A DNA stretch of 57,160 nucleotides from a virus (IMGVR_UViG_3300037493_005727:133091-190250), one strand, 5' to 3'; counted from the first letter of the stretch, positions 31,717-33,154 are shown. A program made the numbers and translations. The notes: a model not told the origin generated them from the letters alone.

Positions 31717-31953
31717 CTACACCTTGGTTGTTCGTTTGAAGATGACATCCCCCCCGATCCAGACCTTGAGTTCCAGCAGGCCGTCTCGGTGGAGTCCTTC
31801 TACAGTGATGTCGTCGTGGTGGATTGAGCCCTCGGCTCTCTGCAGCACCTGGCAGCGAAACCCCCCGGAGCGGCTCCTGGGGCCCGTTCCGACTTTCGCT
31901 TTCCGCCCATCCACGCTGATGTTGAGCCAGAAGTTCCTAACGTTTCGGGGCAT
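31717..31953 (-). CDS. small hypothetical protein
   Basis: ATG 31953 is preceded by GGAGGA: 'MPRNVRNFWLNISVDGRKAKV...'. Confidence 0.55.
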   Translation of the reverse strand: MPRNVRNFWLNISVDGRKAKVGTGPRSRSGGFRCQVLQRAEGSIHHDDITVEGLHRDGLLELKVWIGGDVIFKRTTKV

Positions 31954-32272
31954 CGGCGGTGTCCTCCAAGTAAGCATCTCCGTCCACTCGAATGTCCCCC
32001 ATCACCATGTTCGCGCCTTGGTCTACGGCGGTGCCAGTGATCTTCTGCGTCAGGGTTTGTTTCCCCGCTTTGATGGTGAGTACGCCCCCTTTCCGCATCA
32101 GCTCCTCGAAGAACGCTAGAAGCTCGTTTGGACGGTAGACCGTCGATTCGAAGAGGCACTTTCCTTTCGCGTGCTCTCCTTCCGGTTTGCCACACTGCGT
32201 ACAACCTTCGAGGTGATACCGAGAGAACGTGTACTTGAGATCCGCTCTGAACTTGTGGCCGTGTAGCTTCAT
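31937..32272 (-). CDS. CCHC-motif family protein (copy 1)
   Basis: 'CTQCGKPEGEHAKGKCLFESTVY'. Confidence 0.6.
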   Translation of the reverse strand: MKLHGHKFRADLKYTFSRYHLEGCTQCGKPEGEHAKGKCLFESTVYRPNELLAFFEELMRKGGVLTIKAGKQTLTQKITGTAVDQGANMVMGDIRVDGDAYLEDTADAPKR

Positions 32273-32643
32273 CCGCCCACCCCTACGAGTTCGAGCTCTA
32301 CCGCCGTTCCCGTTGGTCCGCCGTAGACAGGGCTGAGTCTCCCCAGTTCGTAGTACGCCGGGTCGTTGGACAAGGTGTACTGATACGACGACGCTTTGAC
32401 CAAGTAGGACACCGAAGCTCCTCCAATGATCTCCAAGGTCAACTTCCCGTCCTTCGGGAGCTTCCCTTGGAACAACGCCGCCAGGATACGCTCTAGTGGC
32501 GCAGCGTCGAGCTTGGTGAAGTCGAACATACAGTCCTCCCCCATGTGCGCGATGATCGGCTTCTTACACTTTCTGCAGACCCCGCTTCCGAGGCTGCTTC
32601 TTCCGTACTCCTCGATGGTGAGTCGTGCCGTCAGTCTTTGCAT
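32269..32643 (-). CDS. CCHC-motif family protein (copy 2)
   Basis: 'CRKCKKPIIAHMGEDCMFDFTKL'. ATGA-type coupling to copy 1. Confidence 0.6.
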   Translation of the reverse strand: MQRLTARLTIEEYGRSSLGSGVCRKCKKPIIAHMGEDCMFDFTKLDAAPLERILAALFQGKLPKDGKLTLEIIGGASVSYLVKASSYQYTLSNDPAYYELGRLSPVYGGPTGTAVELELVGVGG

Positions 32644-33154
32644 AGTGCGCCTTGTAGTTGGTGGGGGAGAACAAGCACTTCCCTTTCACGTGGGTATCCT
32701 TGGCGTGGCCACAGTGAATGCACTGAGTAAACCAAGCCCAGTCGATCTGCCCGCTCTCGACCGTGATGTCCGAGTGCTTCGGGTGCGCCCCCCACCAGAT
32801 TCCACGTCCCGTGACTACCAGGTAGTCGGCGTGGGCTTCCGCGTTTAGCTCGTACCCGGGACGCGGAGGGACCAGAAACAGCTCTCCGTTGGACACCTGG
32901 TCCTCCATCTGGTCGAAGGCCGCCTCACCCACGAGCTCTTCAGCCGTGCTTCGTCGGATGAACGAAGCGCTCCAGCCATGGAGCTCAAAGGATGAGATGT
33001 CCTTCAGCCTTTTCTGTACGTCGGCGAAGGTCTTCTGAAGCTTGGGCAGCAGCTTCAGGAGATCCGGAGTCATCGTCACCACCGCGAAGTCGCAGTCGGC
33101 GTTGAAGTGCTCGTTGTTACTGCTCGCGCTTAGGAGGTAGCTTTGACCTGACAT
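32564..33154 (-). CDS. CCHC-motif family protein (copy 3, motif C-terminal)
   Basis: 'CIHCGHAKDTHVKGKCLFSPTNY'. The 3' 80 nt overlap copy 2 out of frame. Confidence 0.55.
   Translation of the reverse strand: MSGQSYLLSASSNNEHFNADCDFAVVTMTPDLLKLLPKLQKTFADVQKRLKDISSFELHGWSASFIRRSTAEELVGEAAFDQMEDQVSNGELFLVPPRPGYELNAEAHADYLVVTGRGIWWGAHPKHSDITVESGQIDWAWFTQCIHCGHAKDTHVKGKCLFSPTNYKAHYAKTDGTTHHRGVRKKQPRKRGLQKV

Follow-up and report, generated by a model that had tools for sequence, protein, structure and literature searches.

Is a short Cys/His motif that recurs across small genes of an uncultured phage a genuine protein domain, and if it is, what might it do there? The question is raised by a 57,160-nucleotide (nt) stretch of viral DNA (IMGVR_UViG_3300037493_005727:133091-190250, hereafter the window), where the original prediction, made without database searches, had pointed to six small genes (here P1 to P6) sharing a zinc-knuckle-like CCHC motif. 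Comparison with large sequence collections shows that the six genes belong to a large and previously undescribed domain family, which has so far turned up in metagenomic phage DNA alone. These data establish that the family exists, that it is conserved and portable, that it forms arrays and that the libraries searched lack it. Its module would bind a metal ion, probably zinc, and may, more tentatively, dock variable payloads to a shared target.

Six genes in the window

A six-frame scan of the window with the regular expression C..C.{6}H.{4,6}C[LM]F gave exactly six matches, at 32150-32203, 32524-32577, 32669-32722 and 40465-40524 on the minus strand and at 49751-49804 and 49998-50051 on the plus strand, against none in 100 shuffled replicates of the window; these are the six open reading frames (ORFs) and strands first described. 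When a hidden Markov model (HMM) of the module was run against all six-frame ORFs, the same six proteins scored at E 3e-17 to 2e-11 and the next ORF at only 0.26, so that no seventh copy is present in the window. The training set of this HMM includes fragments of the six themselves and their E-values are thus partly circular, for which the regular expression and its shuffles provide an independent check. All six proteins fit both the family HMM and the pattern C-x2-C-x6-H-x4-6-C-[LM]-F-x2-[TS]-x-[FYWL], and so qualify as members of what may be called the 'GKCLF' CCHC module family. The spacer between His and the last Cys has four residues in five of them and six in P4, again as had been reported.

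The genes are laid out as a minus-strand trio (P3-P2-P1), a minus-strand singleton (P4) and an adjacent plus-strand pair (P5-P6), and their coordinates bear out the earlier description of three tandem genes with two neighbours on the opposite strand. P1 (111 amino acids (aa); 31937-32272, minus strand) carries its module at residues 24-46 (nt 32150-32203; HMM E 1.9e-16) ahead of a C-terminal part predicted to form a helix and beta-sheet, and its 14 orthologues, 61-83% identical, all keep C24, C27, H34, C39, L40 and F41. P2 (124 aa; 32269-32643, minus strand; module residues 23-45, nt 32524-32577, HMM E 1.8e-11) is the most divergent copy in the window (C-M-F-D-F-T-K-L); its orthologues P0001-P0007 are each 124 aa long with the ligands conserved. 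In P3 (196 aa; 32564-33154, minus strand) the module occupies residues 145-167 (nt 32669-32722), after a 140-aa N-terminal domain and before a disordered basic tail that is conserved in orthologues, of which ten were found (57-74% identity); P0077, P0108 and P0104 are remoter P3-like proteins. P4 (144 aa; 40132-40566, minus strand; module residues 15-39, nt 40465-40524, HMM E 2.5e-15) has the six-residue spacer in all of its orthologues, and near its C-terminus shows a second Cys/His-rich stretch (CCEH...H-x2-C-x2-C; window 40132-40260), where residues 111-132 give weak zinc-ribbon-like matches in Pfam. P5 (84 aa; 49703-49957, plus strand; module residues 17-39, nt 49751-49804, HMM E 8e-17) also has orthologues and lies at a site syntenic with two other contigs, L005 and L039. 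P6 (77 aa; 49950-50183, plus strand; module residues 17-39, nt 49998-50051, HMM E 3e-17) has a second, ribbon-like site, C-x2-C...C-x2-C (nt 50118-50177), which is conserved in P0012 and P0045.

Neighbouring module genes overlap, P5 and P6 by 8 nt and P1 and P2 by 4 nt. The 3' end of P3 and the 5' end of P2 share 80 nt out of frame (32564-32643, minus strand), a dual-coding stretch in which the P3 stop codon falls within the codons of the first CxxC of P2. The same overlap is kept in a divergent relative (L001/L002), with 45% identity in P3.

The module is N-terminal in P1, P2, P4, P5 and P6 and C-terminal in P3. With it masked, no significant pairwise similarity was detected among the six window proteins (best E 0.47), in agreement with the claim that their flanks differ.

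Size and conservation of the family

Searching 1.84 billion cluster representatives with a 38-column HMMER profile of the module returned 507 clusters at E<=1e-3, 16 of them at E<=1e-10. Among the 150 matches listed of these 507, the proteins are 48-234 aa long (median about 100), and the module lies mostly within the first 40% of the protein, although in some it is C-terminal. Two or three copies occur in P0054-57, P0062, P0063, P0073 and P0078. Attached to unrelated partners at the N-terminus, at the C-terminus or internally, and repeated within some proteins, the module is portable in just the sense first proposed. One of the few members with a recognisable partner domain is a 214-aa protein from a 187-kilobase (kb) relative (L011:751-1395), which joins Pfam DUF1281_C to a C-terminal module copy of a C-P-F variant.

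The consensus reads C-x-[NH]-C-x6-H-[VA]-[DE]-G-K-C-L-F-[ED]-x-[TS]-x-[FY]-x-P. The logo of 157 distinct modules, C1-x-[N54/H30]-C4-x6-H11-[V50/A31]-[D/E]-G65-K71-C16-L94-F99-[E45/D32]-x-[T85/S15]-x-[F47/Y43]-x-P41, has all four ligands invariant, F18 invariant (99% in the logo) and L17 at 94%. The original prediction had made conservation of the Cys and His positions one of its touchstones, and these ligands are invariant in orthologues as well as in the 157 modules. Conservation extends beyond them to K15 (71%), [ED]19 (77%), [TS]21 (100%) and [FY]23 (90%). Net charge of the module is about zero, with Lys and Arg enriched at positions 2, 5, 6, 8 and 15 and acidic residues conserved at positions 13 and 19. 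Among 197 retrieved proteins the spacer from His to the last Cys has four residues in 153, five in 21 and six in 12; the middle spacer is six residues in all members, and a four-residue middle spacer was found in none of the 197.

Phage origin and absence from known collections

Proteins predicted on a 190,250-base-pair JGI contig match P1 and P3 at 100% identity, which makes the window part of an uncultured phage genome of about 190 kb. The major capsid protein shares 36-37% identity with its counterparts in Salmonella phage Arash (181 kb) and in the Vibrio phages D69, D181 and D148; a blastn comparison with deposited phages gave no nucleotide-level match to the window. The first profile search recovered 53 proteins, all of them unnamed and metagenomic; these are orthologues of P1, P2, P4, P5 and P6, and their contigs reach 187 kb. 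Among orthologues, which come from related metagenomic phage contigs of 167-194 kb, every one that spans the motif retains both first Cys residues, the His, the last Cys and the Phe.

That the module belongs to no named zinc-finger family was upheld by profile libraries, searched with the six window proteins and 144 diverse members. In Pfam-A at E<=1 the six gave no match apart from the weak ones in P4, and the 144 gave only scattered sub-threshold zinc-ribbon matches, one or two members per family. No consistent match was found in PHROGs for either set, a strong match to phrog_25437 being confined to a single member of the 144, and NCBIfam gave none to module proteins. A profile search of PDB sequences yielded CxxC-level noise only (cereblon and PINCH, E>=0.17), and nothing relevant to the family was found in the literature.

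Searches of genomes were similarly unproductive outside metagenomes. A P1 fragment and a consensus two-module query, run by tblastn against 50,697 deposited phage genomes, recovered nothing meaningful, and the whole genome of Arash, the nearest isolate, contained zero copies when scanned with the module HMM. A back-translated stringent pattern (38 bits) was applied to one genome each from 185,579 bacterial and archaeal species and matched 19 times, none of these being a convincing module; the best, two loci in Saccharibacteria metagenome-assembled genomes (full-sequence E 2e-5 and 1e-3), are chance-like. In IMG/VR the same pattern matched 12 stretches on six contigs, four of 168-194 kb, one of 36 kb, and L035 (GC content 0.39), whose match looks like chance. 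In JGI metagenomes it matched 88 stretches; 68 of them are genuine loci of the family, with 146 modules in all. Within the reach of these searches, the family occurs in uncultured phage DNA, as opposed to cellular genomes or prophages.

Tandem arrays and their genomic sites

Tandem arrays are the rule for the family. Metagenome loci typically hold two to five modules per 1-4 kb, at a GC content of 0.45-0.67; L007, a 15-kb contig that also carries Prim-Pol and VapE-like genes, has four modules in three adjacent genes; and five successive module genes stand at the P5/P6 site in L039. The largest array (L041:1280-14380; IMGVR_UViG_3300045051_000909, 194 kb) has about 16 module ORFs within 14.5 kb, mostly of about 80-120 aa, which start with a 'VGDxV' part resembling a small beta-barrel and end with the module; none of the array proteins has a Pfam match. 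Array copy number differs between related phages. With some 16 copies in one array and 507 clusters overall, the paralogue expansion suspected from six genes is real and much larger than first seen.

Gene order around all three module sites of the window is conserved in relatives. P5 and P6 head a plus-strand unit that runs on into an M15 endolysin, recognised by its Pfam match and placed directly downstream of P6 at 50198-50689, and then into tail-fibre-like genes. The label 'early region' originally given to the module genes does not suit this pair, which sits directly upstream of the endolysin on a late-looking strand. Promoter and terminator scans of the window indicated operon boundaries only.

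Predicted structure and metal binding

AlphaFold2 (AF2) was run on P3 with its orthologues and 105 module fragments as input, giving a mean predicted local distance difference test (pLDDT) of 90.1 and a predicted template modelling score (pTM) of 0.79. The module region reaches pLDDT 90-92, and the tail, below 60, is disordered. For the module, the model has no more than isolated beta-bridges and, immediately ahead of the His, a short 3-10 helix, which gives it the look of a knuckle rather than of a beta-beta-alpha finger. No fold match to the P3 model was found in PDB or BFVD. Its N-terminal domain (residues 1-144, window 32723-33154), modelled at pLDDT >90 and marked by a conserved SNNEH[FY]NADCD[FY]A, might represent a novel fold, perhaps with an acidic/His site for catalysis or metal.

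Invariance of the ligands, taken with this confident model, leads us to infer that the module binds metal through Cys1, Cys4, His11 and Cys16. The metal is probably zinc, which the ligand set and the C-x2-C knuckle fit; iron or an iron-sulfur cluster would be the alternative.

A subfamily fused to a polymerase motif

In P0055, P0123, P0145 and P0153 the module is followed some 20-30 residues later by T-x-TGR[LI]S[SG]-x-x-PN-x-x-N-[IM]-P, a signature that corresponds to motif 2 of family-A DNA polymerases; P0055 matches Pfam DNA_pol_A at E 2e-5. A profile built from the motif-2 proteins led to a conserved subfamily of about 70 aa (P0198-P0207), for example MIDGCQNCHHDKSTHMPDGSCLFEPTKFKPYP..TGRLSSxEPNISxLPR... 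Proteins combining the module with this motif-2 lookalike are encoded at L011:10001-10213, L013:10001-10222, L009:6566-6820, L008:94-354 and L007:10001-10669, one contig of the subfamily being the 187-kb relative of the window's phage. In the four contigs examined (L011-L014) the gene of about 70 aa is directly followed by an rIIA-like gene (696 aa) and rIIB; the 84-aa P0153 (L009/L010) is one gene further upstream of the rIIA-like/rIIB pair, with an Endonuclease_7 gene between.

The polymerase similarity covers about 20 residues (BLASTP to Arash PolA at E 1e-5 and 9e-5; 20 columns in hhalign). Family-A motifs A, B and C and the palm and fingers domains were not found; only motif 2 aligns, in a subfamily outside the window. 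At the 3' end, the motif-2 loop of the Klenow and Klentaq structures touches both the primer strand and the minor groove. Such contacts in polymerases, carried over to the fusion, suggest that at least this subfamily works on DNA, and the fusion is the only clue to function that emerged. The idea that the module itself derives from the polymerase stretch preceding motif 2 (DGR-IH-TSF against DGK-CLF-E-x-T-x-F) was considered and rejected, as the hhalign alignment covers only the 20-residue motif. A split-polymerase origin was likewise rejected, since no motif-2-bearing gene adjoins a polymerase gene in the loci examined. A related-locus search with Arash PolA for a polymerase of the window's clade returned Arash relatives only.

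The family-A polymerase of Arash (L043:37737-39564, gp154c-gp152c) is itself split in its annotation into a 'polymerase nu' and a 'polymerase theta' gene, with a 61-aa ORF between them. The break falls inside motif B (..AKSVTF | ..LLYG..) and looks like an intron or mobile insertion, not two enzymes; being an unrelated insertion in motif B, it was discarded as a parallel to the motif-2 genes.

Possible roles of the module

The reading preferred here, tentatively and at somewhat less than an even chance, is that the module is a metal-stabilised portable unit that docks variable payloads to a shared target. In outline, about 30 residues would hold one metal ion (probably Zn2+) between Cys1, Cys4, His11 and Cys16 in a knuckle-like mini-fold, onto which the L-F-[ED]-x-[TS]-x-[FY]-(x-P) stretch would pack. 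Joined to many unrelated short payloads, the module would spread as its small genes multiply in tandem at a few genomic hot spots, and by recognising one shared target it would bring different payloads to the same place. That it may be more than a folding staple is suggested because K15, [ED]19, [TS]21 and [FY]23 are conserved while all else diverges. The likeliest class of target would be nucleic acid or the replication/transcription machinery, in view of the motif-2 fusion subfamily and the strongly basic tail of P3, though both the shared-target model and the identity of the target are speculative. Several findings weigh against docking. A net charge near zero and a conserved acidic residue set the module apart from classical nucleic-acid-binding knuckles; none of the six window proteins has a motif-2-like peptide; no cultured phage among the 50,697 deposited genomes searched was found to carry the module; AF2 of P1 with its 14 orthologues had low confidence (pLDDT 63) and the model was set aside; and every conserved non-ligand residue could be structural, serving as turn glycine, mini-core or salt bridge.

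This last point leads to the main rival, that of a pure folding staple, in which a metal-stabilised core would let very short phage proteins fold, with a common fold and no common target or activity, as in generic zinc ribbons. Unrelated partner sequences and the variable position of the module agree with such a role, as does the P3 model, where module and N-terminal domain form one compact unit (pTM 0.79). Generic zinc ribbons and knuckles, however, conserve little beyond their ligands, and here K15, [ED]19, [TS]21 (at 100%) and [FY]23 are held through 157 modules and more than 500 clusters, a constraint that exceeds the normal need of a staple. This account is considered unlikely, if still a serious contender. 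Direct binding of single-stranded DNA, RNA or DNA ends, as by retroviral nucleocapsid CCHC knuckles, with payloads tuning specificity, would explain the CCHC ligand order and H-x4-C spacing, the enriched Lys and Arg positions, the fusion to a primer-contacting polymerase motif and the basic tail of P3. It is nonetheless rated as rather improbable, given the near-zero charge, the conserved acidic positions 13 and 19, the lack of the aromatic residue that follows Cys1 and stacks on bases in nucleocapsid knuckles, and the failure of zf-CCHC to match even at E<=1. Host-takeover or anti-defence effectors, the role first favoured for these genes, would have each paralogue neutralise a different host protein or defence system, with arrays as the product of an arms race. 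Small accessory genes in tandem, fast-diverging arrays at hot spots, a copy number that varies between related phages and absence from cellular genomes in the pattern scan are what such effectors would show, but no similarity to known anti-defence or takeover proteins and no defence-related context were seen, and two copies sit in a late-looking unit beside the endolysin. As an account in its own right it is given the smallest chance of those weighed here, and it is compatible with docking rather than an alternative to it.

A bolder form of the docking model, thought rather doubtful, would make the module a phage-exclusive recognition domain that tethers fast-diversifying tiny effectors to a single hub of DNA metabolism, such as the replisome or primer-template junctions, with the motif-2 fusions acting as mimics of the 3' end or primer grip. 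If true, this would amount to an unseen strategy by which large uncultured phages manipulate replication or evade DNA-sensing defences. Small metal-binding modules are common, and what distinguishes this family is that it is well defined: it comprises more than 500 clusters, is strongly conserved beyond its ligands and reaches about 16 copies in an array. The module flags a sizeable set of functionally dark genes carried by a clade of environmental phages of 170-195 kb, and one HMM suffices to find and group them; the family merits at least an entry as a domain of unknown function. Should its members share a target, they would form a natural payload library aimed at one host or phage machine, and the motif-2 fusion offers a concrete entry point into DNA-end binding.

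Other genes of the window

A metallophosphoesterase (30036-30776), an AAA_33 polynucleotide-kinase-like P-loop protein (45103-45672) and a protein with a cREC_REC, or 'cyclic-phosphate processing receiver', domain (46994-47461) are encoded in the same minus-strand block, and together they may be a gene set of the RNA-repair type. A cluster of five predicted tRNA genes (35994-37137) lies between the two module-gene blocks; its plus-strand genes are Ile and one whose anticodon loop is odd, and its minus-strand genes are Gln, Leu and Thr. The 299-aa protein encoded at 41795-42694 ends in a J-domain (DnaJ, E 6e-7), an unusual feature among phage accessory genes.

Comparison with known systems

Three further candidates were examined as relatives and set aside. 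An HNH or beta-beta-alpha-Me nuclease with a CxxC...H head does not fit, as the module ends about eight residues past the last Cys, with no Asn/His helix and no HNH match in Pfam. The C-L-F-x-x-T stretch resembles block A of inteins and Hint domains; here only 38-105 residues follow the module, with no block B (TxxH), no terminal HN and no Hint or intein match in Pfam. CDGSH does not fit either.

The retroviral CCHC knuckle (Pfam zf-CCHC, PF00098, C-x2-C-x4-H-x4-C), which with the second Nanos finger comes nearest among known kinds, is like the module in ligand order and in its C-x2-C and H-x4-C spacing, the latter being equal in the two, and each is tiny, poor in regular secondary structure and present in tandem copies. 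The module differs in a middle spacer of six rather than four residues, in the obligatory L-F-[ED]-x-[TS]-x-[FY] extension past the last Cys, in a net charge of about zero where the retroviral knuckle is basic, in lacking the base-stacking aromatic residue, and in being restricted to phages. PF00098 is not among the families matched by the 144 diverse members, just as it missed the six window proteins. The second CCHC finger of Nanos, a eukaryotic RNA-regulator domain, has the spacing C-x2-C-x7-H-x4-C and is always paired with a first CCHC finger. It has the same ligand set as the module and a near-identical spacing (seven residues for six), and no similarity to Nanos appeared in the Pfam or PDB searches. 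WhiB-like proteins of actinophages are also small metal-cluster proteins, multiplied as paralogues, that dock to a common hub, a sigma factor; in these, four Cys residues bind a 4Fe-4S cluster, and cellular homologues exist. Their spacing and fold are different from those of the module, and no sequence relation was found.

Small phage zinc-ribbon proteins (Zn_ribbon_8, Lar, NinD) resemble the module genes in being short accessory proteins built around one metal site, and P6 and P4 additionally have a ribbon-like C4 or CCHC second site. Zinc ribbons have two C-x2-C knuckles and little else conserved, whereas ligands 3 and 4 of the module are H-x4-C; a second C-x2-C supplying these ligands was not found, the stray sub-threshold ribbon matches already described being all that linked the 144 diverse members to these families. 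Judged from its sequence features, the module family, itself absent from the libraries searched, is grouped here with the small metal knuckles of phage accessory proteins.

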